Shown here piece by piece: positions 18,058 to 35,571 of a stretch of DNA of 64,000 nt. The translations under genes were made by a program, and so were the position numbers. Source of the DNA: Bacteroidetes bacterium GWB2_32_14 (GTDB lineage: Bacteria; Bacteroidota; Bacteroidia; Bacteroidales; UBA12077); assembly GCA_001768235.1 (NCBI GenBank), contig MENK01000024.1:84468-148467 (forward strand). Reading direction: 5' to 3'. The notes below the pieces were generated by a model. The model was not told the DNA's origin and searched no databases. It worked only from the letters and a program-made list of their open reading frames with translations. Each line of letters starts with the position of its first letter. The stretch's first letter is position 1.

Positions 18058-20298
18058 TTACCTGATATGCCATGCAATTTTATCGAGTAGAATCTTTGCA
18101 TTAATAGGTTTTGAAATGTAATCAATACAACCATTCTTTAAACACAATTCTTTTTCATTTTTCATGGCATATGCTGTTTGTGCAATAACCGGAATATCAA
18201 TATTAAGGTCTTTCATTTTATCCAGGAAATCAAAACCGTTCATCAGGGGCATATTTATGTCCAAAAGTATTATATCCGGATGTTTTGCTTTTACCATTTC
18301 CAGCAAAACCATTCCGTTTTCGGCATGTTTAATATTTGCATTGGTACGTGAAAGAAATTCTTTAATTAATAAAAATGATGTGATTTCGTCTTCTGCAACA
18401 TATATTAATTTACCTGAAAAGTTAAATTCTTTCTTCTGCTCACTTTCTTCTTTTAAAAGCTCATTTTCTTCTTCGGGTGTAATTAGAGGAATTTTAAAAG
18501 TAAAAGTTGATCCTTTTCCTAACTCGGATTTAAGTTCAATGCTTCCATGCATTAATTCAAGGATTCCTTTACAAATGCTTAAACCAAGCCCCGTTCCTTC
18601 TTTTATGCGCCTGTTCTCCGATTGCATAAATCTTCCAAAAATAAGCTCTTGTTCTTTTTCCGAAATTCCTATACCCTCATCTTTAACCGAAAAGTGAATC
18701 TGTTTATTCTCTTTATCAACCACGAAATTTACTTTAATAACACCCTTGTCTGAATACCTGATTGCATTCGAGATTAGGTTATCTAATACTTGTTTTAAAC
18801 GTATGGGATCGGTTTTACAAACCATGTAAAAATATTCGCTGGATGTTGTATGAATTAATTCAAGGTCATTTTTTATTTTAAATTCATGGCTTTCTTTGTA
18901 AAAAGCAATTGATTGTTCAACGATATCATAAATATTGCCCCAGATATACTGGATATTTAACAGGTTGGATTCGATCTTTGAGATATCAATAATATCGTCG
19001 ATAATTCGCAAAAGTTTTTTTCCCGCATTATTTATGTGAATAATAAACGATTGTGATTTTTCATGTGTTTGTTGTGTTGCAAGAAGTTCGGAGAAACCCA
19101 TAATAGCATTCATAGGAGTACGAATTTCGTGGCTCATATTGGCCAGAAATGCTGATTTTAAACGGTCGCTTTCTTCTGCTTTTTTCTTTGCTTTTTCAAG
19201 TTCGGTAATAAGTTTTTCGGTTCTTTCCAGGTTTTCTTCAAGCTCCTCGTTTTGTGCAAGATATTCTTCGTTTAAAGAAAGGTACTCCTCGTTACTTTCT
19301 TTTAATTCGATTTCTGCTTTTTTTCGTTCTGAAATGTCTTTATGTGTCCCGATAACACGTGTTGGGTTATTATTTTTATCCCATTCCATTACTTTTCCCA
19401 TATCCAGCACCCATTTGTATGAGCCATCTTTACAAAGCAAACGGTGTTCGTTTATATGATGCTGAATTTTGCCTGTTAATAGTTTATTTAAATCGGAAAT
19501 AGCTTTCTCTTTATCATCGGGATGAATTCTTATTTCCCATTCTTCATAGGTATTTTGAATATCCTCATCAGAATAACCCAGCATGTTTTTCCATTGTTTC
19601 GAGAAATAGACTTCTTTTGTTTGTGGATTCCAATCCCAAACACCATCTCCACTGCCTTCGAGCGCGTATTGCCATCGTTGTTCGCTTTCTTTCAGGGCTT
19701 TACGTGTATTCCAGCTTTGTTTTTGTTTAACCATCATTCTGCCAAGTATCATTGAGCCAATGGGATACAGCAGGATTACCGGAAGCCCAATTTTTTTAAG
19801 TGTTGGAATTGTTCTTCCTTCAGGTAAAAACAGGGTACAAATCAACATTACTACATGCACTATAAAACCAAGATAATATAATTCGGCAGTACCATAATTT
19901 ATCTTGTCTTTTATAAAAATTGTTCTCAGATTTCTCCAACCAATTCCAATTAAGCCTGAGCTGATTATTACGCTTACACCCATCAACATGCCGTCACCTC
20001 CCATGTAAACCCTGAAGATGGTTGTTATTGTCATAGCTATTAATGTAGGTATTGAGCCAAAAAATAAACCGGAAATAGAAAGCATTATTGAACGGGTATC
20101 AAATACTAAACCGGGATATAAAGTCCATGGAGTTAACATCAATATTATGCCAATGCATCCTAATACTATACCGGTAATTATTTTATATATAGCGTTCTTT
20201 TTTATTTCAATTTTAACCCACGCTAAATCATATAACATGCTAAATGACAGGAGAATGGCGGTGTTTTGCAATAACCCCAGTATCATGAGTTTTTCCAT
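18058..20298 (-). CDS. Hybrid sensor histidine kinase (5TMR-LYT membrane domain, PAS, HisKA, HATPase, receiver)
   Basis: Multi-TM N-terminus, a PAS region (WDWNP...), the canonical H-box SAFLANMSHEIRTPMNAI, N/G boxes (NLISNAIRY, DEGIGI, GTGLGLSI) and a C-terminal receiver (ILLDINMP). Confidence 0.9.
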   Translation of the reverse strand: MEKLMILGLLQNTAILLSFSMLYDLAWVKIEIKKNAIYKIITGIVLGCIGIILMLTPWTLYPGLVFDTRSIMLSISGLFFGSIPTLIAMTITTIFRVYMGGDGMLMGVSVIISSGLIGIGWRNLRTIFIKDKINYGTAELYYLGFIVHVVMLICTLFLPEGRTIPTLKKIGLPVILLYPIGSMILGRMMVKQKQSWNTRKALKESEQRWQYALEGSGDGVWDWNPQTKEVYFSKQWKNMLGYSDEDIQNTYEEWEIRIHPDDKEKAISDLNKLLTGKIQHHINEHRLLCKDGSYKWVLDMGKVMEWDKNNNPTRVIGTHKDISERKKAEIELKESNEEYLSLNEEYLAQNEELEENLERTEKLITELEKAKKKAEESDRLKSAFLANMSHEIRTPMNAIMGFSELLATQQTHEKSQSFIIHINNAGKKLLRIIDDIIDISKIESNLLNIQYIWGNIYDIVEQSIAFYKESHEFKIKNDLELIHTTSSEYFYMVCKTDPIRLKQVLDNLISNAIRYSDKGVIKVNFVVDKENKQIHFSVKDEGIGISEKEQELIFGRFMQSENRRIKEGTGLGLSICKGILELMHGSIELKSELGKGSTFTFKIPLITPEEENELLKEESEQKKEFNFSGKLIYVAEDEITSFLLIKEFLSRTNANIKHAENGMVLLEMVKAKHPDIILLDINMPLMNGFDFLDKMKDLNIDIPVIAQTAYAMKNEKELCLKNGCIDYISKPINAKILLDKIAWHIR

Positions 20299-20528: not shown

Positions 20529-20909
20529 CTAATCTATACTTCTGAATTTTTTAATGGCTTTTAATATCTTTTCAAAAGAATAAGGCTTAGTTAATAAGTT
20601 ATCAAATCCGGCATTATTATAATTACTAAAGAAATCGGCCGGATTATGTGCTGTTAAAGCAATTATCGGAATTTTATTCTTTGGGAAGGAGAAGTTTTCT
20701 CTAATGTATTTTGTTGTTTCAACACCGTTCATTACAGGCATTTCAATATCCATTAATACAATATCTATTGTTTTTGTTTGAAGCAATTCAATGGCTGACT
20801 TGCCATTATCAGCTTCGAAAATCAATGGGCATATCTCTTTAATGATTTCTTTTAAGAGCATCCTATTCATTAAAATGTCATCTACTATTAAACAGGAAAA
20901 GGGTTTCAT
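20529..20909 (-). CDS. Single-domain response regulator (receiver only)
   Basis: LIVDD, VLMDIEMP, ALTAH and TKP: the receiver acidic pocket, phospho-Asp, Thr and Lys positions. Confidence 0.85.
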   Translation of the reverse strand: MKPFSCLIVDDILMNRMLLKEIIKEICPLIFEADNGKSAIELLQTKTIDIVLMDIEMPVMNGVETTKYIRENFSFPKNKIPIIALTAHNPADFFSNYNNAGFDNLLTKPYSFEKILKAIKKFRSID

Positions 20910-20919
20910 AACTATATTT

Positions 20920-21606
20920 TTATCCTAATTTACTTAATGTTTCAATAATGTTTAAACTATTAATTTTCACATTTTTCCCTTCAATATCTATAATTTTATC
21001 GTTTTTAAACTCGGTTAAGGTACGAATAAAGCTTTCTTTGGTTGTTCCTGCAAGTTCTGCCAATTCAGTTCTCGACATAGGAAATTCAAAGCTATTTGAG
21101 TTAAAAATCTGTTTAGAAAAATAAAGGATTATATCTGCCACTCTTCCGGGCAATTGTTTCTGGTTTTGAGCCATTAATTTATCAAAAAAGTAAAGATTAT
21201 CTGCACTTAGTAATTGAATCAGCAGTATTGCAAAACGTCCATTTTGCTCCATTACTTCTTTAAAGCATGCAATATCAATAAAAAGTATTTCAGCGTTTTC
21301 AATTGCCGATGCTGAATAGCGGAACGTGTCCTCTCCAAAAATTGAAATATTGGCGAGAAAATGGCCGGGAGTGACAATTTTAAATATTATAACTTTTTTA
21401 TTTCTCCCCTCTTTATAAATCTTTATTAATCCGGATTGCACAAACATAACATGCGATGTGCGTGTATTCTGCTTAAAAACGATGTCTTTTTTATTAAACT
21501 TAACTGTATTGCTATTCTTATTAATAAGTTCAGCTTGTTCAGATGTTAAGTATTCCAAACAAGGTATTCCACCTTGATAGATATTTTCATCGATAGGATA
21601 AACCAT
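20920..21606 (-). CDS. Crp/Fnr family transcriptional regulator
   Basis: N-terminal cNMP-binding-like beta-roll (FKQNTRTSHVMFVQSGLIKIY) and a C-terminal HTH (SRTELAELAGTTKESFIRTL). No N-terminal Fnr Cys cluster. Confidence 0.85.
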   Translation of the reverse strand: MVYPIDENIYQGGIPCLEYLTSEQAELINKNSNTVKFNKKDIVFKQNTRTSHVMFVQSGLIKIYKEGRNKKVIIFKIVTPGHFLANISIFGEDTFRYSASAIENAEILFIDIACFKEVMEQNGRFAILLIQLLSADNLYFFDKLMAQNQKQLPGRVADIILYFSKQIFNSNSFEFPMSRTELAELAGTTKESFIRTLTEFKNDKIIDIEGKNVKINSLNIIETLSKLG

Positions 21607-21801: not shown

Positions 21802-22179
21802 ATGAGTGCGAAAAAGAAAATTATAGTGGTTGATGATTCGGAAACAAACCTTGTTCTTTTAGAAGCTATTTTAGAGGATGAAGGATTTATTGTTAAAACA
21901 GCTTTTAGCGTTAAAGAAGCAACTGAATTGTTAAAAGATTATAAGCCAAACTTAATTTTACTGGATTTATTAATGCCAAACGAAAATGGTTTCGATTTAC
22001 TTAAAAAACTAAAGTTAAATTCGAGTTATAAAGATATTCCGGTAATTATTGTTACTGCTTTTGCAAACAGAGAAAACTCCGCTATTGCTTTCGATTTGGG
22101 AGCATTTGATATTATTGAGAAACCAATTGATATACCCTTTTTTCTGGAAAAGGTAAACAAGGCCCTTGCAATTTTTTAA
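21802..22179 (+). CDS. Single-domain response regulator (CheY-like receiver), first gene of the chemosensory cluster
   Basis: IVVDDSE, ILLDLLMP, IVTAF and EKP. Confidence 0.85.
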   Translation: MSAKKKIIVVDDSETNLVLLEAILEDEGFIVKTAFSVKEATELLKDYKPNLILLDLLMPNENGFDLLKKLKLNSSYKDIPVIIVTAFANRENSAIAFDLGAFDIIEKPIDIPFFLEKVNKALAIF

Positions 22180-22195
22180 TCATAATATTTTTAAA

Positions 22196-23992
22196 ATGAC
22201 TGAAAAGGAATTGGAAAATAAAATAAAGGTTAAGGCATTACTTGAAACATATTCTACAAAAGATATATGTAAAATATTTACAACTATCGATAGTAAAATA
22301 TACTCATTGCACGAATGCTCATCCGATGATTTTCTTCGGTTAAATAACGATTTTAAACAATTATATAACCAGTCAAAATTAATTTCGGAAAATGTTGCTG
22401 AAATATTTAATATCCTGAATACAAATAAAAACAAGCTTTTATATAACGAGATTTACACCTATTGTGAGAAAATAATTGAAAACACAAAAACTTTTGATCA
22501 TAACCTGATCGTGATAATCGATTTTTTAAAGGATTTGTCGAATCAATTAAGGTTTGTTTTTTTCCCGGTTAAGAATTATGGCCAAAATTTAATGAGCCTT
22601 AAATACTTAATAGCGAATTTAAATCTTACTGTATCTTATTCAAAAGAAAATAGTGACGCATTAAAAAGCTTTAAAAGAATCGAGGAAAATATAAACGGGT
22701 TGAAATCATTGCTGGAAAAAATACCAAAAATCGTTAATGCTTCCAGGAAAATATCGAGAATAATTACTTCAAATTTCGCACTGGGTAAAGAAACACCAGA
22801 TACGAATATTGAATCCATATTAAATGCAGTAAAGTCAAGTATAGGATTAATTGAAAGGAAATACAAAGCGAATGAAAATAATATCCCGGATATTCGAAAG
22901 AAAACGGATAAATCGGCTGAGAATATTAGTGATATAATTAAAAAATTACAGTATCAGGATATTATTAAGCAAAAAATGGAGCATATTCAGCATACACATA
23001 AAGACCTTATTAATGAACTTTATGAGTTTGAAAATACTTCTGACGAAGAAAAATATATTAACGAAAAAGCAAAGTTTTTCTTGCGCATAAGAGATATTGC
23101 AGGATTACAGGCAGCTCAGCTTATCCATGCAAATAAGGAGTACCAGTCTGCCCTGGAAATAATTATTAATAATTTTATACAAATAGGAGATAATATGAAA
23201 ATTATCTCTCAATTGTGTAATGATATTGTTACGGATAATGAAAATGATGAAGAAAGATTATTTGATGAGATAGTGCAAAATATCAAGCGTTCGGAAGAAT
23301 GCTACCTTAATAAAAACAACCAGAATAAAAAGCTATACAAAGAGCTAAATTCAATAGAATATCAATTAACCCAGTCAGAGAAAAGTTTCGCACTGCTGAA
23401 TGAACTAAATAATGATTTAAACATAAATATTAATCAATATTTTAAGGAAATAGAAAAACTGTCGGAACATGATGAGAATATTAAACAATCTTTAATACAA
23501 TTAAAAAGCCTTTATAAAGATATTCAGCAAAATGGTTTAAAACTGATTGGTTTTAATGGCCTGCTAGCTCCTTTAAAAAAACATGTTCAGAGCCTGATTA
23601 ACGACAAAACCGATACATCATTAAATAAAAATTTTGAAAGAATTGAAAAAGCCGTGAGCCATTTACATTCATTACGCTTTAGCCTTGATAGCAAATTAAA
23701 GGAAAATCAGGATATAAGTAATGGTGTATTAAATGGAATTAAAAAATCAATTTCCGAAATAAAGTATTATGATTTTTTCGAAAAAATAATTGATGAGATA
23801 ATAACAGAATTAAATACAATAAACTATAACCTGAAGATTGATGATGAAGAAATAAGCAGTAAAGAAGAAAATTTAAAGAAACTTAAAAGTTATTATACTA
23901 TGCAAACCGAGCATTTAATTCATGAGCAGGTCGAAAAAGGAGAAAAAGCGGATATAGAAAGCGATGATAATGGCGAAATAGAATTCTTTTAA
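22196..23992 (+). CDS. Large coiled-coil protein of unknown family with a CheZ-like DxxxQ motif and an acidic aromatic C-terminal tail
   Basis: The track ORF starts at a TTG at 22166. The ATG at 22196 (MTEKELENK) is more likely, 16 nt after the receiver stop. The protein is helical and low-complexity throughout. It carries KLQYQDIIKQKMEHI at 22943-22987 and ends ...ADIESDDNGEIEFF. Confidence 0.6.
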   Translation: MTEKELENKIKVKALLETYSTKDICKIFTTIDSKIYSLHECSSDDFLRLNNDFKQLYNQSKLISENVAEIFNILNTNKNKLLYNEIYTYCEKIIENTKTFDHNLIVIIDFLKDLSNQLRFVFFPVKNYGQNLMSLKYLIANLNLTVSYSKENSDALKSFKRIEENINGLKSLLEKIPKIVNASRKISRIITSNFALGKETPDTNIESILNAVKSSIGLIERKYKANENNIPDIRKKTDKSAENISDIIKKLQYQDIIKQKMEHIQHTHKDLINELYEFENTSDEEKYINEKAKFFLRIRDIAGLQAAQLIHANKEYQSALEIIINNFIQIGDNMKIISQLCNDIVTDNENDEERLFDEIVQNIKRSEECYLNKNNQNKKLYKELNSIEYQLTQSEKSFALLNELNNDLNININQYFKEIEKLSEHDENIKQSLIQLKSLYKDIQQNGLKLIGFNGLLAPLKKHVQSLINDKTDTSLNKNFERIEKAVSHLHSLRFSLDSKLKENQDISNGVLNGIKKSISEIKYYDFFEKIIDEIITELNTINYNLKIDDEEISSKEENLKKLKSYYTMQTEHLIHEQVEKGEKADIESDDNGEIEFF

Positions 23993-24009: not shown

Positions 24010-24324
24010 ATGAAATCAAAAGAAAAAAATATTCAATTAATTCCTTCGGGCAATACGAAAGTGGTTATTATACTTGAACATGAACTTACCATGTTCACAA
24101 TTGAAAAAATTAAAAGTAAAATAATTGATGCGTTTCAGCAGTATGATTTTATAGATTTAAACCTTAAAAAGGTTCATAACATGGATCTTACATTTGTCCA
24201 GTTATTATACTCCCTAAAGGTGTCCGCGCAAAAGTTGAATAAAAAAATAGTATTTAAGGCAGATATGCCTGATGATTTACGATCGCTTTTTGAAAATTCA
24301 GATTTGAATAAAATATTGGTATAA
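24010..24324 (+). CDS. STAS-domain protein (anti-sigma-factor-antagonist-like)
   Basis: 104 aa with a SpoIIAA-like layout. The ...DLNLKKVHNMDLTFVQLL segment sits where the phosphorylatable loop DxSGVxFMDSSG lies. Recognition is by eye, so confidence is moderate. Confidence 0.55.
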   Translation: MKSKEKNIQLIPSGNTKVVIILEHELTMFTIEKIKSKIIDAFQQYDFIDLNLKKVHNMDLTFVQLLYSLKVSAQKLNKKIVFKADMPDDLRSLFENSDLNKILV

Positions 24325-24344: not shown

Positions 24345-24710
24345 ATGAGCAAAGTTATTTTAATTGTTGATGATTCTGAGAGTATCCGGGAAGTGGTAAA
24401 TTTCACATTAGAAAACGAAGGCTATAAAGTACTTATTGGTATTGATGGCAAGGATGCTTTAAAATTCCTTGATGGCAGGCCTATCGATTTAATTATTACC
24501 GATTTACATATGCCGGAAATGGATGGTATCGAATTAATAAAACATATTCGTACCGTTGATGCATATAAGCATATTCCTATCTTATTTCTAACTACAGAAT
24601 CTCAGGTTTCAAAAAAAATGGAAGCCAAAGATGCCGGAGCAACCGGATGGATAATTAAGCCATTTGTCCCCGCGAAATTAATTGAAGCACTTAAAAAAGT
24701 AATACGATGA
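24345..24710 (+). CDS. cheY: Chemotaxis response regulator CheY
   Basis: 121 aa with LIVDDSES, IITDLHMPEMDG, LTTE and IIKPF. Overlaps cheA by 4 nt (ATGA). Confidence 0.9.
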   Translation: MSKVILIVDDSESIREVVNFTLENEGYKVLIGIDGKDALKFLDGRPIDLIITDLHMPEMDGIELIKHIRTVDAYKHIPILFLTTESQVSKKMEAKDAGATGWIIKPFVPAKLIEALKKVIR

Positions 24711-26755
24711 TAGATAAATTCAAAAATAAATTTATCGAAGAAGCAACAGATAATATTAATGATCTGGAAGATGCTTTATTGCTTATTGAGAATGATACCC
24801 AAAACAAAGAACTTGTCGAAAGAATATTCAGGGCTATGCATTCCCTGAAAGGCGGCGGAGCCATGTTTGGGTTCAACCAATTAAGTGAGTTTACTCATAA
24901 CCTCGAGAATTTGTACGACATTGTCAGAGAAGGGAAACAACAGATTACAAGGAACCTTTTAGATGTTACATTAGCATCTGTTGACCACATGAAAGTGTTA
25001 ATAACAAATGAAAACCTTGATACTCCTGAAATCAAAGCAAGGCAAGAAGAATTAACCCTTCAAATAAAAAAGGTAATGGCCAACGATATTAGCAAAGAAA
25101 AAACTGTTGCCTCTGATACAATCCGGAAAAACAAAAACATTAAAACCTACTACATTTATTTTGAACCTGATATCAATGTGTTTAACGATGGTACAAACCC
25201 CTTGTTTTTAATCGACGAGTTATATACACTCGGGAATTGTAAAACATATGCTCATTTTAATAAAGTTCCCGATCTTAACAAAATTGATGTTACCAAATGT
25301 TATACATACTGGGAGATTCTGTTAGCTACCAACGAAGATATTAATGTAATTACTGATGTTTTTATTTTTATAGAAGATCAGTGTAAACTGGAGATAAATG
25401 AAATTGCTGATTATGATATTACATCAACTCCGGAGATAATTGAAAAGATATCGGTATTAGCGGCAGAAAGAAAAGATGTTGGAATTGCTGAGATTCAAAA
25501 TATTATAAAGGCAACAGCAAAAGCCAGGTTCGATTCAATAAATGCCGATGAGGTAATCTCTAAAGCAGGAAATCTTCCATCTGTAAAAGAAAATGTTATT
25601 TCCAGTATCAGGGTTTCATCTAACAAGTTGGATCAATTAATGAACCTTGTTAGTGAACTTGTTACAACCCAGGCAAGATTAAGTTTGTTTGCTGAAAAGT
25701 TAGGCGATCCTGAAGTGTTTGCTATTGCTGAAAATGTTCAGAAATTATCACGGCAACTTCGTGACAATGCGTTTGATATTGTGTTGGTTCCTATTGAAAC
25801 GATGATTACCCGCTTCCAGCGATTAGTCAGGGACCTGTCAAAAGAACTGAACAAAAATGTTGTATTTATTGCCGAAGGTACCGATACAGAATTAGATAAA
25901 ACAATTATTGAATCTTTAACAGATCCTTTATTGCATATAATCCGAAATTGTATCGATCATGGAATTGAAACAGCCGATACCAGAAAAAGGCTGAATAAGC
26001 CGGAACAAGGTAAAATCCTTTTAAAAGCATTTTATTCGGGAGCCAATGTCCATATTAAAATACATGATGATGGCGCGGGAATTGATCTGGAAAGAATCAG
26101 GGATAAAGCAATCCAGAAGGGGATAATCGGAAAAGATAGCGTACTGAATAAAAAAGAAACACTAGACCTCGTTTTCTTGCCGGGATTTTCAACAGTTCAA
26201 AATGTTACGGATGTCTCAGGCAGGGGCGTTGGAATGGACGTGGTTAAACGTAAGCTTGCTGAAATCCGTGGTGAAGTGGAACTTGATTCCGAAGTTGGTG
26301 TGGGTACAACCTTAACATTAAAATTGCCTCTTACTTTATCAATAATTGATGGATTACTTGTGAAAATTGATCAGATTCATTATGTAATTCCATTGTCAGT
26401 TGTAAAAAAAATATATGCTACTGAACATAACCAGGTTATTAATAAATACAATAACCTGATAGTTCTGGATAATGAACGAATTCCTTTTTATTATTTAAGA
26501 GAAGAGTTTAGTTTACCTGAATCGAATCAGAAGATAGAACAGGTAATAGTTGTTTCTTTCGAAGATAAACAAATTGGTTTGGTTGTAGATGAAGTGGTTG
26601 GCGAATACCAGGCCGTACTAAAATCTTTGGGGAGAATGTATAAAAAACAGGAAATAATATCAGGAGCAACCATCCTGGGTGATGGAACAGTTGCCCTTGT
26701 TATGGATACAAACAAAATTATCAATAAGTTTTCGCAGGGAAAACTAAATATTTAA
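24707..26755 (+). CDS. cheA: Chemotaxis histidine kinase CheA
   Basis: Hpt P1 motif FRAMHSLKGGGAMFG, a dimerisation region, HATPase boxes (HIIRNCIDHGIE, DDGAGID, GRGVGMDVV) and a C-terminal CheW-like P5 domain. Confidence 0.95.
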   Translation: MIDKFKNKFIEEATDNINDLEDALLLIENDTQNKELVERIFRAMHSLKGGGAMFGFNQLSEFTHNLENLYDIVREGKQQITRNLLDVTLASVDHMKVLITNENLDTPEIKARQEELTLQIKKVMANDISKEKTVASDTIRKNKNIKTYYIYFEPDINVFNDGTNPLFLIDELYTLGNCKTYAHFNKVPDLNKIDVTKCYTYWEILLATNEDINVITDVFIFIEDQCKLEINEIADYDITSTPEIIEKISVLAAERKDVGIAEIQNIIKATAKARFDSINADEVISKAGNLPSVKENVISSIRVSSNKLDQLMNLVSELVTTQARLSLFAEKLGDPEVFAIAENVQKLSRQLRDNAFDIVLVPIETMITRFQRLVRDLSKELNKNVVFIAEGTDTELDKTIIESLTDPLLHIIRNCIDHGIETADTRKRLNKPEQGKILLKAFYSGANVHIKIHDDGAGIDLERIRDKAIQKGIIGKDSVLNKKETLDLVFLPGFSTVQNVTDVSGRGVGMDVVKRKLAEIRGEVELDSEVGVGTTLTLKLPLTLSIIDGLLVKIDQIHYVIPLSVVKKIYATEHNQVINKYNNLIVLDNERIPFYYLREEFSLPESNQKIEQVIVVSFEDKQIGLVVDEVVGEYQAVLKSLGRMYKKQEIISGATILGDGTVALVMDTNKIINKFSQGKLNI

Positions 26756-26762
26756 ATTAATT

Positions 26763-26768
26763 GGGAGG
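26763..26768 (+). promoter_or_regulatory. Shine-Dalgarno-like GGGAGG 7 nt upstream of the cheW-1 ATG
   Basis: ttGGGAGGtatagctATG. Most other starts in the window lack any purine-rich SD. Confidence 0.35.
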
Positions 26769-26775
26769 TATAGCT

Positions 26776-27237
26776 ATGAAAGAAGAAGCCATGGACAAGA
26801 CTATTTCCTATCTTTCGTTTCATCTCGGAGAAGAAGAATTTGCTGCACATGTTAGTAAGGTGCTTAACATTCTCGAGATGATTAAAATTATTGAAGTACC
26901 AAATGCTCCTGAATATATGAAAGGAGTTATTAATCTGAGAGGTACAGTCCTTCCTGTTGTTGATACACGTGTAAAATTTGGAATGACACCAACAGTTTAT
27001 ACCCCAAATACATGTATTGTGGTCATGGATGTGGAGATTGAAAACGAAATGGTAAAAGTTGGGGCTTTGGTTGATTCTGTTCAGGCAGTTCTCGAGATCG
27101 AAGAATCAATGATTCAACCTCCACCAAGCATTGGAAGTAAATATAAGTCTGAATTTATTTACGGCATGGCAAAGATCGATGATAAGTTTATTATGCTTCT
27201 TGATATGGAAAAAGTTTTTTCGAATGACGAAATCTAA
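26776..27237 (+). CDS. cheW: Chemotaxis coupling protein CheW (copy 1)
   Basis: CheW fold motifs (FAAHV..V..I, GVINLRGTVLPVVD, IVV). The track start is the TTG at 26761. The ATG at 26776, preceded by GGAGG, is preferred. Confidence 0.9.
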   Translation: MKEEAMDKTISYLSFHLGEEEFAAHVSKVLNILEMIKIIEVPNAPEYMKGVINLRGTVLPVVDTRVKFGMTPTVYTPNTCIVVMDVEIENEMVKVGALVDSVQAVLEIEESMIQPPPSIGSKYKSEFIYGMAKIDDKFIMLLDMEKVFSNDEI

Positions 27238-27303
27238 AAACAGGACAATAAAAGAAATAGAAATAAAAACAAACAGATAATTAAAAACTAATAAATTAAA
27301 ACT

Positions 27304-29385
27304 ATGAAATCAATTAACGATTTAAAAATTGGATTAAGGCTTAATTTAATATTAAGTATCCTGATTGTTGTAATTATTACAGCTTTAGGTGTTTATAATT
27401 ATTACACCAATAAGCAAAGAATTATTAACGATGCTGATATAAGGATGAACGAACAATTGGATGATATGGTAAGCATTCTGGATGTTCAGATATCTGAAAA
27501 TCAGAAAAAAGTCAATACTGCACTTCAGGTAGCTTCGCATGTATTTAATACAAGCGGAGATTTAATTTTAGATAGCAGGGAATATATAAACATGGCTGCT
27601 TCAGGACAGGGTTTCCAGATGCAGGATATGAATGTACAACTTTGGAAATTGGGGAATGTTCCTATTCAATTAAACAATGACTTTGTTGATAAAATAGGAG
27701 AATTAACAGGAGCAAATACTTCGGTATTTCAGAAAGTGCAGGGAGGATACGTGCGAATCGCGACAAATGTACTAAACGAATCAGGAAAAAGATCGTTCGG
27801 AACTTTTATGGCAAATAACTCAGATATTGTTCAGAAAATTGAATCTGGCCAAAAATATGAAGGACGTGCCCTGGTATTGAATGTTTGGATGTTAACTGCA
27901 TATGAACCGATAAAGCTAAATGGACAAATAATTGGGATGATTGGTGTTGGAGTTCCCGAAAAAGATCTTGGTAGTTTAAAAAAGATTTTTGACAGTAAAA
28001 TCTACTTTGAGTCGGGATATCCTTTTCTTGTAGCAAAAGATGGTACATTTATTATTCACCCTACATCGGAAGGTCAAAATGCAAGCCAGTTTACATTTTT
28101 TAAACAAATGACAGGAAGTAATCAAAACAGTGGAAAATCAAGGTATCAATGGCCTGAAACAGCAAGTGGACAATGGAAATATCAATATTTTAAATACGTT
28201 CCTAAAATTGATTCTTATGTTGCCGTATCATTTTATGAAAATATTTTATTTAAATATTTAAAAGAAATACGTACATCAATAATTGTAGGGTTAATACTAG
28301 CAATTGTAATTTTTATTATTATTGTTTCGTTAATTTCCACGAATATAGCCAAGGCATTAAATAAGGGAGTTAATTTTGCACAGAAAGTTGCCGATGGGGA
28401 TCTTACAGCAACAGTTGAAATAAAACAACAAGATGAAATAGGGTTGTTGGCTAATGCGCTCAATCGTATGGTTTTACAACTACGTGGTATTGTAGAAAAT
28501 GTCGATTTAAGTGCAGACAACATTGTTTCTGCAAGCCAGCAGATAAGTTCTGGTTCGCAACAATTATCACAAGGAGCTAATGAACAGGCTTCATCAACGG
28601 AAGAAGTATCTTCATCTATGGAAGAAATGGTTTCTAACATTCAGCAAAATACAGATAATTCGCAGCAAACAGAAAAAATATCAATAGAAGCAGCTAATGG
28701 TATAGAAAAAGTTGCTCATGCTTCTCAGGAAAGCCTAAGCTCTATAAGGCAAATTGCGGGCAAAATCAATGTTGTTAACGATATTGCTTTTCAAACGAAT
28801 ATACTGGCTTTAAATGCGGCAGTAGAAGCTGCACGTGCCGGTGAACATGGCAGGGGGTTTGCCGTTGTTGCCGCAGAGGTTAGAAAGCTGGCCGAAAGAA
28901 GTAAAATTGCTGCCGACGAAATAGTTGGTTTATCAGCGCATAGTTTAAAAGTTACCGAAGAAGCCGGAGAACTAATGGCCAAGATAATTCCTGAAATAGG
29001 TAAAACAGCCAAACTGGTACAGGAAATTTCTGCTGCAAGCCTTGAACAAAATTCAGGCGCCGACCAGATAAATAATGCTATTCAGCAATTAAATCAGGTT
29101 ACACAGCAAAATGCTGCTGCATCGGAAGAATTGGCTACCAGTGCCGAAGAACTCGCCAGCCAGGCCGAACAATTGAGAGAGAATATTTCATTCTTTACTA
29201 TTGGCGATAATAAAAAATTAATGAAAAGTAAAAAAGATCATGGGAAATATGATTCCCAAAAGAAAGAAAATAAGGCAGCAAATAGTGTTCATGAACAAAA
29301 ACATGCAAGTTTAAATCGTAATACCGGGTATGACTTTAAGATGCACGATGATAAAACTACTGACGATGATTATGAAAAATTTTAA
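27304..29385 (+). CDS. Methyl-accepting chemotaxis protein with a periplasmic Cache-type (double-Cache-like) sensor, HAMP and signalling domain
   Basis: TM1, a roughly 280-aa periplasmic region ([10 protein letters not shown]...GKRSFGT Cache-like motif), TM2 and HAMP ([13 protein letters not shown]). The conserved hairpin tip is [42 protein letters not shown]. Confidence 0.95.
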
Positions 29386-29427
29386 AGTTATTTATGTTTC
29401 TGAATAATTAAATTAAAAAATATTAAT

Positions 29428-29432
29428 GGAGG
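29428..29432 (+). promoter_or_regulatory. Shine-Dalgarno-like GGAGG 8 nt upstream of the cheW-2 ATG
   Basis: aatGGAGGaataataaATG. Confidence 0.35.
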
Positions 29433-29440
29433 AATAATAA

Positions 29441-30004
29441 ATGAATAAAGATATTCATAATAATAGCAATTCGTACCTTTCATTTCATCTTGGCGAAGAG
29501 GAATTTGCGGCACATGTTGGTAAAGTCCTTAATATACTTGAAATGACAAGGATTACAGAAGTGCCCAAAGCTCCTGAATACATGAAAGGGGTTATTAACC
29601 TGAGAGGCACAGTTTTACCCGTCGTCGATACTCGTATAAAATTCGGAATGTCACCAACAGTTTATACTCCAAACACATGTATTGTTGTCATGGAAGTAGA
29701 AATTGAAAATGATAATGTGCAGGTCGGAGCTTTGGTAGATTCTGTGCAGGCAGTACTTGAAATAGAAGACTCACAAGTACAACCTCCGCCAAGTATTGGA
29801 AGTAAATATAAATCGGAGTTTATTTATGGCATGACCAGGTTTGATGAAAAATTCATTATGTTGCTCGATATGGATAAGGTTTTCTCAAGTGATGATATTC
29901 AATCGCTTAAAGAAAAAACATTTGAAGGCGAACAGGAAATGGGGGCTAATACTGAAACAAATATTAAAACTGTGACCAAAACAAAAACAAAATCAAAAAC
30001 TTGA
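29441..30004 (+). CDS. cheW: Chemotaxis coupling protein CheW (copy 2) with a Lys/Thr-rich C-terminal extension
   Basis: 122 of 144 core residues are identical to copy 1 (my by-eye count). It has an extra tail ...TETNIKTVTKTKTKSKT. Confidence 0.9.
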   Translation: MNKDIHNNSNSYLSFHLGEEEFAAHVGKVLNILEMTRITEVPKAPEYMKGVINLRGTVLPVVDTRIKFGMSPTVYTPNTCIVVMEVEIENDNVQVGALVDSVQAVLEIEDSQVQPPPSIGSKYKSEFIYGMTRFDEKFIMLLDMDKVFSSDDIQSLKEKTFEGEQEMGANTETNIKTVTKTKTKSKT

Positions 30005-30071
30005 TTACAGCTTGATAGTATAGATAAGAAAATGAATCATGTTGGTAATCAGAAAATTATAAAATTGAGAT

Positions 30072-32009
30072 ATGAAAATAAACGATATAAAAATCAGTAA
30101 CAAGTTAAGAATTTCAATATTTTCTCAAGTGGTTTTTATTGCTTTAATCGTCTTCTTCTTTTTTAATATCAATAATAAGTTTAATGAAATTAAAAAGAAT
30201 AAGATTTATGTTTCGGAGAAGATAAATGAAATTCGATCGTTTTCTCTAAACGTAAAAGATTTTATTAATAATGACATGGATTACAATCAGTTGCGTTCGG
30301 TTTACGAATCCATGAGAGCCGGCCTTTCACAGGATGTTTCAATGAATGTTTTTGATGAGATTTGGTCGGACATTGATAAAATTAATGACTTACGTAACCA
30401 AAATCTGGCGATTGAAAACAAAGTTATGGATTTGTGTTCGCAATCAATAAATGCTTCGTCAACTTTTATTATGAGCGTTAGTGCGAAACTTGCCGATGCA
30501 AGGTTAAGCAATTCTGTTTCAAAATTAGAACGAATAGTTATTGGTGGTGCGAATAATAATAATTTGTTTTATGCTGAAATAAAAGTGCTTTTTTATAAAT
30601 TAAAAAATGATATTTCTTTAAAAGAACAATTGCTGACAACACTTAATAGTGGAATTGAGAACGCAACCCAGGACAGGGGGCGTTTAAAAGGAACTCCCTA
30701 TGAATCGCTTGCGGTTACAGCCATTGATGCAAATGTTCAGATAAGAAGCCTTGTTGTTGAGTATGTTTCAAAAGTAGAAACTGAGAATAATCTTAAAAAT
30801 AATATTTTTCAGATTATTGATAAAATGGATAAAGAACTAAACAGCAATGAAACAAAATCAACTTTCGATGGATTTGCCGTGATTAAGAGCCAGATAATTA
30901 CAATTTTTACTCTGATTTTTATTATATCATTCATTCTTATACTGATTTACTATGATTTGGTAAAAGTAGTTGGAAGGTTGATTAATGTAGCTGTCACAAA
31001 CCTCACCAAGATGTCAGAAGGTGAACTCGATCTTAATATTTCAGAAACATTAACAGATAGAAACGATGAATTGGGGTTGTTCTCAAAAAGTTTGAATAAC
31101 CTGATTGTAAAGCTAAAGGATATTATTGATTCCATTTCAACTGCTGCAGAGAGTATTAATTCGGCAAGTCTGCAAATAAGTTCAGGTTCTCAGCAATTAT
31201 CGCAGGGAGCTAATGAACAGGCATCTTCAACCGAAGAAGTATCTTCATCAATGGAAGAGATGGTGTCGAATATTCAACAAAATGCAGATAATGCACAGCA
31301 AACAGAGAAAATTTCTGTTGAAGCTTCAAATGGTATCGGGAATGTTGCAAAAGCAGCTCAGGAAAGCTTGAAATCGATCCGCCAGATAGCTGATAAAATT
31401 TCAGTTGTAAACGATATTGCTTTCCAAACAAATATTTTAGCGCTTAATGCAGCAGTCGAAGCTGCCCGTGCAGGGGAACATGGTAAAGGATTTGCAGTAG
31501 TAGCTGCTGAAGTTAGAAAACTTGCTGAAAGGAGTAAAGTTGCTGCCGACGAGATTGTTGGTTTATCAGCACATACTTTAAAAGTTACCGAAGAAGCAGG
31601 GGAACTAATGGCCAAAATAATCCCTGAAATAGGTAAAACAGCCAAACTGGTACAGGAAATTTCTGCCGCAAGCCTTGAGCAAAATTCAGGCGCCGATCAG
31701 GTTAATAATGCGATACAGCAATTGAATCAAATTACTCAGCAAAACGCTGCAGCTTCTGAAGAATTGGCAACCAGCGCCGAAGAACTTGCCAGCCAGGCAG
31801 AACAATTAAAGGAGAATATATCTTATTTTTCTACCGGGAGCATAAAAAATTATAAAAGTATAAAGAGTAATGCAGCCAAATTGCATGAACAGAAAAAATC
31901 ATTTTCTCTTACTCCTAAGGCAAGTCCCAAAATGAAAATGAATAAACATTCTGGTATTGATATTCATTTGAACGACAGGAATATTGATGATGAATATGTA
32001 AAGTATTAA
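30072..32009 (+). CDS. Methyl-accepting chemotaxis protein with an all-helical periplasmic sensor (4HB/HBM-like), HAMP and signalling domain
   Basis: Two TM segments flank a roughly 240-aa helical region, followed by HAMP ([14 protein letters not shown]). The signalling domain is 203/222 identical to that of the first MCP (by-eye count). Confidence 0.95.
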
Positions 32010-32087
32010 ATTTTTGCAGGAAGAATAATTGATATTTATGGTTCATAGATTTTTTAGGTTAGGGTTTTTAGTACGAATCTTTAATCA

Positions 32088-32112
32088 AGAGAGGGGATTC
32101 TCCCTCTCTTTT
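32088..32112 (+). terminator. Intrinsic terminator/attenuator-like hairpin between mcp-2 and cheR
   Basis: agagaggg (32088-32095), loop gattct, ccctctct (32102-32109), then ttt followed by aaaa. It is an 8-bp GC-rich stem but has only a short T tract. Confidence 0.5.
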
Positions 32113-32129
32113 AAAACAAATTAGGAATA

Positions 32130-32987
32130 ATGGATCCAACATTATTACAACAAATTTTTAATGCAAAAATGACTGACGATGATTTTAATCGCCTGAGCGA
32201 TTTTATATATAAGCAGTCAGGAATAAAAATGCCGTATGTAAAATTAATTATGCTGCAAAGTCGGTTGCAAAAGCGACTGAAGGAATTAAAAATTAGCACG
32301 TATAAAGATTATGTTGATTATGTTTTTAGTGAAGAGGGACAAAAAAACGAAATTATCCACATGCTCGATGTGGTGAGCACGAATAAAACAGATTTTTTCA
32401 GGGAACCTGTACATTTCGATTTTTTAAATACAGATGTTTTACCCAAATTCATGAATAATATTCATTTAAATTATAACTTTAAAGTATGGAGTGCAGGATG
32501 TTCAAGCGGAGAAGAACCATATACCATTGCAATTACCTTACAGGAGTTTAAAAACAGAAATCCAAGATTCGATTATTTTATAACAGCAACAGATATTTCT
32601 TTGCAGATTTTACAACATGCTTCCCTGGCTGTTTACAAGGAAGAAAGAATATCAAATATACCCCTGGAGATTAAAAGAAAATATTTTCTGAGAAGCAAGG
32701 ATCATGAAAAAAAAACGGTAAGGGTTGTTAAAGAATTGAGAAACAAAGTAGCCTATTACAGGCTTAACTTTATGAACGATACCTACAATTTGCCCGACGT
32801 CTTCGATGTTATATTTTGCAGGAATGTCCTTATTTATTTTAATCGTGAAACCCAGGAACAGGTAATTAATAAATTGTGTTTAAAACTAAAAAGCGGGGGA
32901 TATTTATTTATTGGGCATTCCGAATCAATATTGGGCATGAAAGTTCCTTTAGAACAAATAAAACCAACAATTTTCAAACGTATTTAA
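32130..32987 (+). CDS. cheR: Chemotaxis protein methyltransferase CheR
   Basis: TDFFRE, VWSAGCSSGEEPYTIA (SAM motif), IFCRNVLIYF and GGYLFIGHSE. Confidence 0.9.
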   Translation: MDPTLLQQIFNAKMTDDDFNRLSDFIYKQSGIKMPYVKLIMLQSRLQKRLKELKISTYKDYVDYVFSEEGQKNEIIHMLDVVSTNKTDFFREPVHFDFLNTDVLPKFMNNIHLNYNFKVWSAGCSSGEEPYTIAITLQEFKNRNPRFDYFITATDISLQILQHASLAVYKEERISNIPLEIKRKYFLRSKDHEKKTVRVVKELRNKVAYYRLNFMNDTYNLPDVFDVIFCRNVLIYFNRETQEQVINKLCLKLKSGGYLFIGHSESILGMKVPLEQIKPTIFKRI

Positions 32988-32998
32988 AACCTACGAAT

Positions 32999-33916
32999 AT
33001 GACAGATTTAACCGACAAAGAATTAATCGACGAGCTTAAAAAACGTTTTGAACAAAATAAACGGGCACTTGAAGAAGTACATGAACTTAATAATGAGCTT
33101 AAAAACGCTAATTTGAAACTCGAAGAATCAGAAGCCCTGAAAAGCCACTTTATTTCGAATATTACAAACGAAATTATTAATCCTTTTGCATCAATTCTGG
33201 CTTTATCAAAAAATATATTATCTGTAGATAAAGAAAATTGGAAAAAAGTAATTTCAATGATTTCCTTAATATATTCCGAAGCTTTTAACCTCGATTTTCA
33301 GTTGCGGAATATATTTGTTGCAGCAAAACTTGAAGCCGGCGAAATTTATCCCGAAATTTTAAATGTGGATATAAAATACTTAATTGATAGTGTTATTGAA
33401 TCATTTAAGTACGTATCTAAGAAAAAGAAATTAAGCATCAGTTTTAATTTTAACATTCCAACAGAACATAATAAACCGGTTTTCTTTAAATCCGATCCCG
33501 AAAAGCTAAGATTAATATTATCAAATCTTTTAAGCAATGCTGTAAAATTTAGCGCTGATGATAAAAGTATTGAAATTACAGCATCTATGGAAAAGAAAAA
33601 TTTAATAATATCTGTTAAAGATAATGGAACAGGAATATCATTAAAAAACCAGAAAATAATTTTTGACAGGTTTAAAAGGCTCGATTCAGGAATTAACTCA
33701 ATTAACCGTGGACATGGATTAGGCCTTTCAATAAACAAAGCATTACTCGATTTGTTAAACGGAACTATTAAAGTTGAGAGTAGTATTGGCAAAGGAGCTA
33801 ATTTCATAATCTCAATACCCGAAAACGATTCACAAGCCAGTGGGTTTTCATTCGATGGAAACGAGTTGTTTTTTGATGACGAATCCATTTTGAATACTGA
33901 TTCTGAAACATTCTAA
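32999..33916 (+). CDS. Soluble histidine-kinase-fold protein with a degenerate H-box (phospho-acceptor His replaced by Asn) and an intact HATPase domain
   Basis: The ATG at 32999 (MTDLTDKEL) is preferred over the track TTG at 32876, which overlaps cheR by 112 nt. It has a coiled coil, a DHp-like segment ESEALKSHFISNITNEIINPFASI, and N/G1/F/G2 boxes LSNLLSNAVKF, DNGTGI, FDRF, GHGLGLSI. No TM segment or sensor domain. Confidence 0.8.
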   Translation: MTDLTDKELIDELKKRFEQNKRALEEVHELNNELKNANLKLEESEALKSHFISNITNEIINPFASILALSKNILSVDKENWKKVISMISLIYSEAFNLDFQLRNIFVAAKLEAGEIYPEILNVDIKYLIDSVIESFKYVSKKKKLSISFNFNIPTEHNKPVFFKSDPEKLRLILSNLLSNAVKFSADDKSIEITASMEKKNLIISVKDNGTGISLKNQKIIFDRFKRLDSGINSINRGHGLGLSINKALLDLLNGTIKVESSIGKGANFIISIPENDSQASGFSFDGNELFFDDESILNTDSETF

Positions 33917-33927
33917 AAAAAGTTTTA

Positions 33928-34416
33928 ATGGATAACCTTGGGTCACATTTTTTATATCCGGCGGAACTTTATGCAAGTAAAGAGCCATTCCAGATTAATA
34001 CTATTTTAGGTTCATGTGTTGCAGTTTGTTTATGGGACAGAACCTTAAACTATGGAGGAATGTGTCATTACATGTTGCCTTATTGGAATGGAGAAGGTTT
34101 AGCGTCGCCTAAATACGGTAATATTGCAATAGAAAAGCTATTAGAGAAAATGTATTCTTTTGGTTGCAATAAAATGAATATTGTTGCAAAGGTTTTTGGC
34201 GGTGGCGAAGTTATTGAAACAAAATCTCCCCAGTTTCATATTGGTGAAAGAAACATTAAATTAGCACTAGAAGTTTTAGAAGAAAAAAAAATAAGTATTA
34301 TTAGTTCAAGCCTGGGTGGCAAGCAGGGACGAAAAATCATATTTTATACCCATACAGGAGAAGTTAAACAAAGATATGTGCAACGTCAAACAGTAAATCC
34401 TGATAATAAAAACTGA
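33928..34416 (+). CDS. cheD: Chemoreceptor glutamine deamidase CheD
   Basis: ILGSCVAVCLWD (catalytic Cys), GGMCHYMLP (His) and AKVFGGG. Confidence 0.85.
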   Translation: MDNLGSHFLYPAELYASKEPFQINTILGSCVAVCLWDRTLNYGGMCHYMLPYWNGEGLASPKYGNIAIEKLLEKMYSFGCNKMNIVAKVFGGGEVIETKSPQFHIGERNIKLALEVLEEKKISIISSSLGGKQGRKIIFYTHTGEVKQRYVQRQTVNPDNKN

Positions 34417-34476
34417 CCTGGATAACAATATTTTTATAGATACCAACTTTTTTTACAATATTATATAATTTTGTAA

Positions 34477-35571
<1,095 letters not shown>

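Follow-up and report, generated by a model that had tools for sequence, protein, structure and literature searches.

This analysis concerns a 64,000-nucleotide stretch of DNA from Bacteroidetes bacterium GWB2_32_14, a member of the Bacteroidales (GenBank assembly GCA_001768235.1, contig MENK01000024.1, forward-strand positions 84,468 to 148,467), and in particular one gene of a chemosensory (che) operon that lies within it. The whole stretch is called the window below, and its first letter is position 1. The gene, here named X, encodes a 598-residue protein that an original prediction, made from the letters of the window alone, proposed to be a CheZ-like phosphatase acting on CheY or on the neighboring receiver. 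The positions given there for the open reading frame (ORF), for the Asp-x3-Gln motif and its Asp and Gln codons, for the acidic C-terminal tail and for the other features all check out, as do the gap of 16 nucleotides that separates X from the receiver gene upstream and the placing of X two genes before cheY; the gene between X and cheY encodes a STAS protein (Table 1). A gene caller begins X at an upstream TTG codon (22166), a start that is probably over-extended; full-length homologues of about 600 residues start near the ATG. The receiver encoded just upstream, REC1, has a complete set of phospho-acceptor residues as read from its sequence (DD11-12, D55, T85 and K107).

Table 1. Features of gene X and of the chemosensory operon around it (window coordinates; domain assignments by Pfam where indicated).
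Feature	Coordinates	Strand	Remarks
Second stand-alone receiver	20529..20909	-	Pfam; divergent from operon
Crp/FNR-type regulator	20920..21606	-	Pfam; divergent from operon
REC1, stand-alone receiver	21802..22179	+	125 aa; Pfam Response_reg 2.5e-26
Gene X	22196..23992	+	ATG ORF, 598 aa; candidate DxxxQ receiver phosphatase, predicted all-helical
Central helical hairpin of X, residues ~205-345	22808..23230	+	Predicted; bears the two best-conserved blocks
Motif KLQYQDIIKQKMEHI, residues 250-264	22943..22987	+	Proposed catalytic pair D255 (22958-22960) and Q259 (22970-22972)
Second conserved block RDIAGLQAAQLIHANKEYQSA, R299-A319	23090..23152	+	Return helix of the predicted hairpin
Acidic tail ADIESDDNGEIEFF, residues 585-598	23948..23989	+	Ends EIEFF-COOH; candidate docking peptide after a low-confidence linker
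Single-domain STAS protein	24010..24324	+	104 aa; Pfam STAS 5e-6
CheY, CheY1 type	24345..24710	+	121 aa; Pfam Response_reg 2.3e-29
CheA	24707..26755	+	Directly after cheY
Remaining operon	24707..35571	+	CheA, CheW, Cache-MCP, CheW, MCP, CheR, kinase-like, CheD, CheB (Pfam)
CheR	32130..32987	+	
His-less kinase-like protein	32999..33916	+	Between cheR and cheD
CheD	33928..34416	+	
CheB	34483..35571	+	

X belongs to a conserved, widespread and unannotated family of Bacteroidales proteins. In a sample that holds one genome per species, 211 genomes carry a relative of X, and the 80 of these 211 whose loci are listed are almost all Bacteroidales, with metagenome-assembled genomes (MAGs) from the rumen and gut among them. 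A word-indexed search returned 198 relatives, nearly all about 600 residues long; those that are named are without exception called "hypothetical protein" and come from MAGs of Bacteroidales, Marinilabiliales and Tenuifilaceae. An exhaustive hidden Markov model search with the central region of X found 689 clusters (50% identity) at E≤1e-3 and 267 at E≤1e-10, and the best 150 of the 689 clusters are all of the full-length X type. Comparison of X with Pfam and NCBIfam gave no match, just sub-threshold coiled-coil noise, and literature searches found no account of the family. We considered whether X might be a spurious ORF of AT-rich DNA and rejected this, since the family is present in more than 200 genomes and its synteny is kept; X is therefore a real gene. 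A transmembrane or secreted protein was also considered and rejected, as an N-terminal hydrophobic segment is absent on reading of the sequence. One relative lies in a MAG labelled Thiohalospira sp., a gammaproteobacterium (L014, JBKHIH010000004.1); since the operon as a whole shares 46-85% identity with its Bacteroidales counterparts, this contig is probably misbinned.

The surroundings of X are conserved as well. A receiver gene stands immediately upstream of X at 65 of the 77 loci with enough flanking sequence, and at 64 of 76 a STAS gene and a cheY-cheA operon come after X, with CheY encoded at most 1.2 kb downstream; conserved synteny extends across loci to the rest of the chemosensory operon. 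Even very divergent members of the family keep this arrangement, and one very divergent member lies at a reduced locus (L090:8001-10821) that amounts to a minimal X-CheY-CheD module. At one locus two CheY-like genes follow X. The proposal that X is an authentic, conserved part of the chemosensory operon, beside receiver genes in most genomes, is borne out by these counts. The operon's CheY is its most conserved protein, with 74-88% identity across loci where X has just 30-58%. In the operon of another divergent member of the X family (L089) a separate cheW gene is missing. The divergently oriented Crp/FNR-type regulator and receiver (20529..21606) are syntenic with the che operon in most genomes, and the regulator suggests that the operon is under cyclic-nucleotide-linked control.

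The conserved positions of X cluster in six blocks (residues 21-60, 121-140, 241-270, 299-320, 521-540 and 561-598), one of which contains the proposed catalytic motif. A bare DxxxQ is unremarkable in a protein of this composition, since X has three copies and shuffled sequences have 1.6 on average; the extended form [FY]QD[LI]xxQ arises in 0.24% of shuffled X sequences. Of the three copies only the one at residues 255-259 is conserved. D255 and Q259 are kept in 123 of 123 diverse members, whose identity to the window protein goes down to about 20%, and across this alignment only six columns are invariant, namely F46, D255, I256, Q259, Y567 and F598. In the 80 species-level genomes the pattern LQ[YF][QH]DII[KRQ]Q is found in all members but one. 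At that exceptional locus (L048:2044-3855) the X ORF is seemingly interrupted, as the extracted frame lacks the motif and has a stop inside the tail; a frameshift or an assembly error would give such a frame. Conservation of the motif among orthologues, which the original prediction had named as a check on its proposal, is thus striking, and the tail is likewise kept. Two residues next to the motif, E262 and H263, are nearly invariant also (H263 is conserved in at least 90% of members and is Asn in one).

An AlphaFold2 model of X built from a 33-sequence alignment is helical throughout, with a mean predicted local distance difference test (pLDDT) score of 79.5. When residues 198-348 are modelled alone they form a hairpin of two helices, 205-279 and 284-345 (75 and 62 residues), at a pLDDT of 84.9. 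The hairpin carries the motif on its first helix and the block R299-A319, which is invariant or nearly so in two family alignments, on its return helix; judged from the helix boundaries and from position along the hairpin, without coordinates, this block should face the DxxxQ stripe. Heptad spacing points to a core made by Y253, I257, M261, I264, H268 and L271, and from the same spacing alone D255, Q259 and E262/H263 would lie together on one exposed stripe. The last 30 residues or so of the full-length model are of low confidence, with pLDDT below 50 at 581-598, and this is compatible with a flexible linker. The protein had been described as a low-complexity coiled coil; this holds for residues 341-500, a poorly conserved, K/E/N-rich spacer of about 160 residues in the conservation profile, and fails for the six well-conserved blocks.

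Since the original prediction compared X with CheZ, we looked for similarity to that family at the level of sequence, profile and structure. The E. coli CheZ query was verified to be identical to 1KMI_Z, and an alignment of CheZ from five genera was built from plasmid records; a homologue search started from E. coli CheZ had only enterobacterial sequences (at least 71% identical) among the matches listed. The matches listed for X itself at E≤1 do not include the CheZ model PF04344, and none of 33 family members matched it at E≤10. HMMER comparisons with the PDB did not retrieve CheZ (1KMI) with either the full-length or the central-region profile of X, and the central-region profile retrieved nothing meaningful. 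Profile-profile alignment by hhalign of X with E. coli CheZ and with the five-genus alignment gave probabilities of 0.1-2%. Thus membership of X in the CheZ family by profile, as first proposed, is not upheld: X is not demonstrably a CheZ family member, because no significant sequence or profile similarity was found, and a remote homology is possible.

Below the level of significance there are several signals in the direction of CheZ. With all three X query alignments, the best local hhalign alignment places the X motif on AQDFQDL of CheZ. In an ungapped profile-profile scan with windows of 15-44 columns, the register that pairs CheZ D143 with X D255 ranks first among 555-584 offsets (z 3.8-4.7), and when the eight motif columns are masked it still ranks 1-2 for two long windows (z 2.9-3.6) and falls to rank 13 for a shorter one. 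A Foldseek search with X residues 198-348 against 350,542 PDB chains has CheZ (1kmi_Z) as its top match, at a non-significant E of 0.067 and a template modelling score of about 0.3, with generic hairpins close behind. These signals are weak and concordant; none is significant, and they are not mutually independent. In CheZ a long antiparallel helical hairpin forms a four-helix bundle on dimerization, and X is predicted to have a hairpin of this general kind. Like CheZ, X has an Asp-x3-Gln pair within [FY]QD[LI]xxQ on a helix that ends about 25 residues after the Asp, and a probably flexible linker that leads to an acidic C-terminal peptide ending in Phe, and its gene stands beside cheY and cheA. 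X differs from CheZ in being almost three times as long, in having E262 and H263 by the motif, in the spacing of the hydrophobic residues of its tail, and in its occurrence in Bacteroidales rather than Proteobacteria. The proposal of a divergent CheZ-class phosphatase is supported in part, by the conserved DxxxQ, the conserved tail and the che operon, and goes without support from any significant similarity to CheZ itself.

The tail has the consensus [DNE][ILVF]E[FL]F-COOH in all complete members but one of the 80 species-level genomes; E596 and F598 show little or no variation, and the last residue is aromatic in 82 of 83 family ORFs. Counted from the C-terminus, its hydrophobic residues stand at 0, -1 and -3, with Glu at -2. 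The CheY-binding peptide of CheZ (...QVDDLLDSLGF) is unlike this, being an amphipathic helix of about 12 residues with hydrophobics at 0, -2, -5 and -6. The CheR- and CheB-binding type of receptor pentapeptide is NWETF. The X tail aligns position by position with this pentapeptide and with the end of the CheT protein, DFEAF. The X tail shares acidity and a terminal Phe with the CheZ peptide, to which it was first compared, and its pattern fits the receptor/CheT pentapeptide (D-hydrophobic-E-x-F) better. Since the tail is nearer to these pentapeptides, its partner may be CheR or CheB rather than CheY; if it is a docking peptide, as its features suggest, a receiver domain is no likelier to be its partner than CheR or CheB. 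The two methyl-accepting chemotaxis proteins (MCPs) of the operon end in DYEKF (29371-29385) and EYVKY (31995-32009), and the consensus of MCP tails across loci L005-L084 is [DE][YF]E[KNSQ][FY]. The kinase-like protein encoded between cheR and cheD also has a conserved acidic-x-F tail, mostly E-x-F (for example SETF and EEIF). Within the operon, X, the kinase-like protein and the MCPs, which are unrelated to one another, thus all close in an acidic-x-aromatic C-terminus, mostly E-x-F. The CheD of Sinorhizobium meliloti also closes in ...SSIEFF (L093:7923-8474).

By its features the closest known analogue of X is CheT of S. meliloti, which is closer than CheZ. What is said here of CheT function rests on a review (PMC12654446) that summarizes Agbekudzi et al. 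2024, Mol Microbiol 122:429. In that review CheT is described as having no detectable homology to known chemotaxis proteins, a DXXXQ motif and a CheZ-like AlphaFold model; it is reported to speed dephosphorylation of just one of the two phosphorylated CheY species and to form a complex with CheR. The review also describes CheS, from the same operon, as a single-domain STAS protein that binds CheA (PMC12654446). We found that the orf10 product of the S. meliloti che operon is the protein that NCBI names CheT, of 123-130 (about 125) residues; it contains VLQGIDLAVQKTRGLAEF and ends in GDFEAF, and the motif VLQGIDLAVQK and the tail GDF[ED][ALFS]F are invariant in 18 of 18 CheT sequences.

The likeness of X to CheT has several parts. 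The Asp-x3-Gln pair stands in an LQxxD[LI]xxQK context in both (X reads KLQYQDIIKQK), both end in D-hydrophobic-[ED]-x-F (GDF[ED]xF in CheT, [DN][ILV]E[FL]F in X), and Pfam lacks a model for either. In each operon a STAS gene immediately precedes a CheY1-type CheY and CheA, CheR and CheD are encoded as well, and the two stand-alone receivers that accompany X recall the two CheY species of the CheT system. Over its full length the CheY encoded here shares 48% identity with S. meliloti CheY1, the phosphate-sink CheY of that organism; the figures are 38% for E. coli CheY and 31% for CheY2. The STAS protein of the window occupies the same position as CheS of Sinorhizobium and has no BLAST similarity to it. 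X is unlike CheT in its size (about 600 residues versus about 125), in its extra conserved blocks (21-60, 121-140, 299-319, 521-540 and 561-580), in its place in the operon (X is second, CheT last) and in its setting, as CheT is alphaproteobacterial and serves flagellar chemotaxis and X is found in Bacteroidales. In hhalign comparisons with a CheT alignment, three X alignments gave probabilities of about 0.1-0.2%, which is no link; a control comparison of CheT with CheZ gave 0.1%, likewise no link. Since hhalign fails also between CheT and CheZ, which are short, helical, fast-evolving proteins, the failure of profile methods is expected and does not speak against a shared mechanism.

Starting from what is observed, a family with conserved synteny, invariant D255, Q259 and F598 and a predicted helical hairpin, we infer a catalytic activity for X, its substrate and a partner for its tail. 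We think it somewhat probable that X is the signal-terminating phosphatase of the Bacteroidales chemosensory pathway, a very large DxxxQ variant of the CheZ/CheT class; its motif context fits both validated enzymes, [FY]QD[LI]xxQ with CheZ and LQxxD[LI]xxQK with CheT. If so, CheA would phosphorylate the CheY1-type CheY, and perhaps REC1 as well, and the operon's CheY would be the likely substrate of X. The central hairpin, probably dimeric, would present D255 and Q259 on the solvent-exposed face of one helix, and, as in the complex of CheZ with CheY, the amide of Q259 would enter the active site of the receiver and position the attacking water while D255 paired with the receiver's conserved Lys. 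The flexible acidic tail, with its [ILV]-E-[FL]-F end, would tether X either to CheR or CheB, in the manner of a receptor pentapeptide and probably of CheT, or to the receiver, in the manner of CheZ. Reach, oligomerization or links to the receptor array would come from the 160-residue coiled-coil spacer, which is variable, and from the remaining conserved blocks.

Several findings weigh against a phosphatase. By Pfam, HMMER against the PDB, hhalign and Foldseek, X shows no similarity to either CheZ or CheT that reaches statistical significance, and it is three to five times larger than these proteins. It has four further conserved blocks (21-60, 121-140, 521-540 and 561-580), which include the invariant F46 and Y567, and the near-invariant E262/H263 pair is without a counterpart in CheZ or CheT and could indicate a different chemistry or the binding of a ligand or metal. 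The operon contains a second candidate phosphatase, the kinase-like protein, which has Asn in place of His and keeps an E-x-x-N motif. Finally, at 11 loci, all from gut or rumen MAGs, X occurs without a receiver, CheY or CheA within 6 kb. At these loci the order of neighbors is a family-2 glycosyltransferase gene, a gene for a small membrane protein and then X, and in three of the five that were inspected an orphan CheW gene and an ApbE-like lipoprotein gene lie nearby; the X members concerned retain both the motif and the tail. (Loci of this kind are L050, L051, L054, L058, L059, L064, L066, L068, L071, L077, L078 and L080.)

The size of X and its several conserved blocks besides the motif are what might be expected if it were instead a non-catalytic scaffold or output target. 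X would then act as a long hub of coiled coil: its hairpin would bind REC1 or CheY in the phosphorylated state, the DxxxQ stripe would serve as a binding surface, and the signal would pass to an effector, which in these non-flagellated bacteria might be one of surface motility or secretion. Among the ORFs that were scanned between 20.5 and 51.7 kb there are no flagellar genes and no evident output component (a flagellar switch, for instance, or a DNA-binding output domain). Scaffolds typically have a variable coiled-coil spacer like the one of 160 residues in X, and the matches of a Foldseek search with the full-length model were all structural coiled coils (SMC, Rad50 and axonemal), none of them at E≤1e-3. 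On the other hand, absolute invariance of just the Asp-x3-Gln pair is the signature expected of catalysis and would be unusual for a simple docking surface, and the context of the motif agrees with that of two validated phosphatases. We therefore regard a purely non-catalytic X as unlikely. The two roles are not mutually exclusive, as the review reports a dual role for CheT itself (PMC12654446). X might be an integrating hub of a non-flagellar pathway that combines a CheZ/CheT-type hairpin, a tail that recruits CheR or CheB, and surfaces (21-60, 121-140 and 521-580) directed to an output or to the array, an idea that is possible and that we hold to be doubtful. If it is right, the gut and rumen Bacteroidales that keep X next to an orphan CheW would have a stripped-down version of the same machine.

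The orphan CheW at loci where neither CheY nor CheA is nearby, together with the tail, brings up a different kind of protein, a receptor-like array component or decoy. Here X would be a soluble helical bundle that binds CheW, its tail would recruit CheR, CheB or CheD, and it would perhaps be methylated or deamidated. Its [DN][ILV]E[FL]F end matches the receptor pentapeptide and MCPs of the same operon have comparable ends (above), one syntenic operon has no MCP gene in the cluster, and the full-length X profile matches MCP cytoplasmic domains in the PDB (2ch7 and 3ja6) at E of about 1e-7. We rejected identity with an MCP cytoplasmic domain on the strength of these matches, because they are located in the variable spacer (330-525) and are ranked amid designed helical bundles and coiled coils, myosin and tropomyosin, and so are compositional. 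No match to the MCP signaling domain (MCPsignal, PF00015) is listed for the window protein or for any of the 33 members, the conserved blocks have by eye no Glx-Glx pattern of methylation sites, and the invariance of D255 and Q259 would go unexplained. A receptor-like X is thus quite improbable.

A helical hairpin is also the architecture of DHp domains and of Spo0B, and the gene is flanked by two receivers, so that X might in principle be a phosphotransfer protein that shuttles phosphate between REC1 and CheY. The phosphorylated residue would be H263, which is well conserved, or a His at position 254, where many members read H-D-x3-Q in a way that resembles the H-DxxxQ of HisKA_3. However, only about half of the family has His at position 254; roughly the other half, X of the window included, has Gln there, and H263 is not invariant. 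HisKA, HisKA_3 and Hpt are absent from the matches listed for the window protein and from the 25 most-matched families. The DxxxQ pair of HisKA_3 kinases works in their phosphatase reaction, and variants in which the His is changed to Gln keep phosphatase activity. This argues against phosphotransfer, which we consider very improbable, and points again towards a phosphatase.

X resembles HisKA_3 DHp domains of the NarX/DesK type in form, in that it too is predicted to have a helical hairpin and about half of the X family reads H-D-x3-Q-K. The H-DxxxQ of HisKA_3 proteins carries out the same Asp/Gln chemistry in receiver dephosphorylation (PMC3510030). Unlike them, X itself and many of its relatives have Gln for His, and X is without an ATPase domain, and no match to HisKA_3 or HATPase models is listed for it; by these sequence comparisons X is not a HisKA_3 family member. 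The phosphatases CheC, CheX and FliY share with the proposed X their role, dephosphorylation of phosphorylated CheY, and the co-occurrence with CheD, and the reduced X-CheY-CheD locus recalls the CheC-CheD-CheY circuit. They have an alpha/beta fold, the pattern D/S-x3-E-x2-N-x22-P and an Asn/Glu mechanism, unlike the all-helical X, for which no match to CheC-family Pfam models is listed. The earlier statement that no phosphatase of the CheC/CheX/FliY type was recognized in the cluster agrees with the ORFs scanned (20.5 to 51.7 kb), among which there is none.

The chemosensory pathways of the Bacteroidota are, to our knowledge, essentially unstudied. Signal termination is usually scored in genome surveys by the presence of CheZ or of CheC/CheX. 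A DxxxQ family that is invisible to the models of these proteins would be scored as "no phosphatase", with consequences for what is deduced about phosphate sinks and the design of pathways. An active X would add a third sequence-unrelated helical family that acts through an Asp/Gln dyad to CheZ and CheT, with the HisKA_3 kinases standing apart. None of these proteins would come near it in size, none had been known outside the Proteobacteria, and receiver phosphatases would then be a good example either of convergent evolution or of very deep divergence. X is also a concrete entry to what the Che pathway controls in non-flagellated anaerobic Bacteroidales, the rumen and gut lineages included.

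Some further observations concern the neighbors of X. The H-box of the kinase-like protein, which is about 300 residues long, is HisKA-like (SHFISNITNEIINP) and carries Asn at the site of the phospho-accepting His, as do 18 of 18 orthologues; the protein retains the E-x-x-N phosphatase motif of HisKA and an ATPase domain. From these residues it could be either a pseudo-kinase or a dedicated phosphatase that is dead as a kinase. Its listed GTG start at 32876, which overlaps cheR, looks over-extended. The STAS protein has DLTF, by eye, where anti-sigma antagonists carry a phosphorylatable DSSG, and the operon is without a PP2C phosphatase. Two sensor kinases flank the region (18058-20298 on the minus strand and 38153-40516 on the plus strand), one a membrane PAS-HisKA-HATPase-REC hybrid and the other a TPR-HisKA-HATPase protein. 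A GAF/PAS protein (35794-38070) is encoded after cheB, both here and in at least one other syntenic genome.

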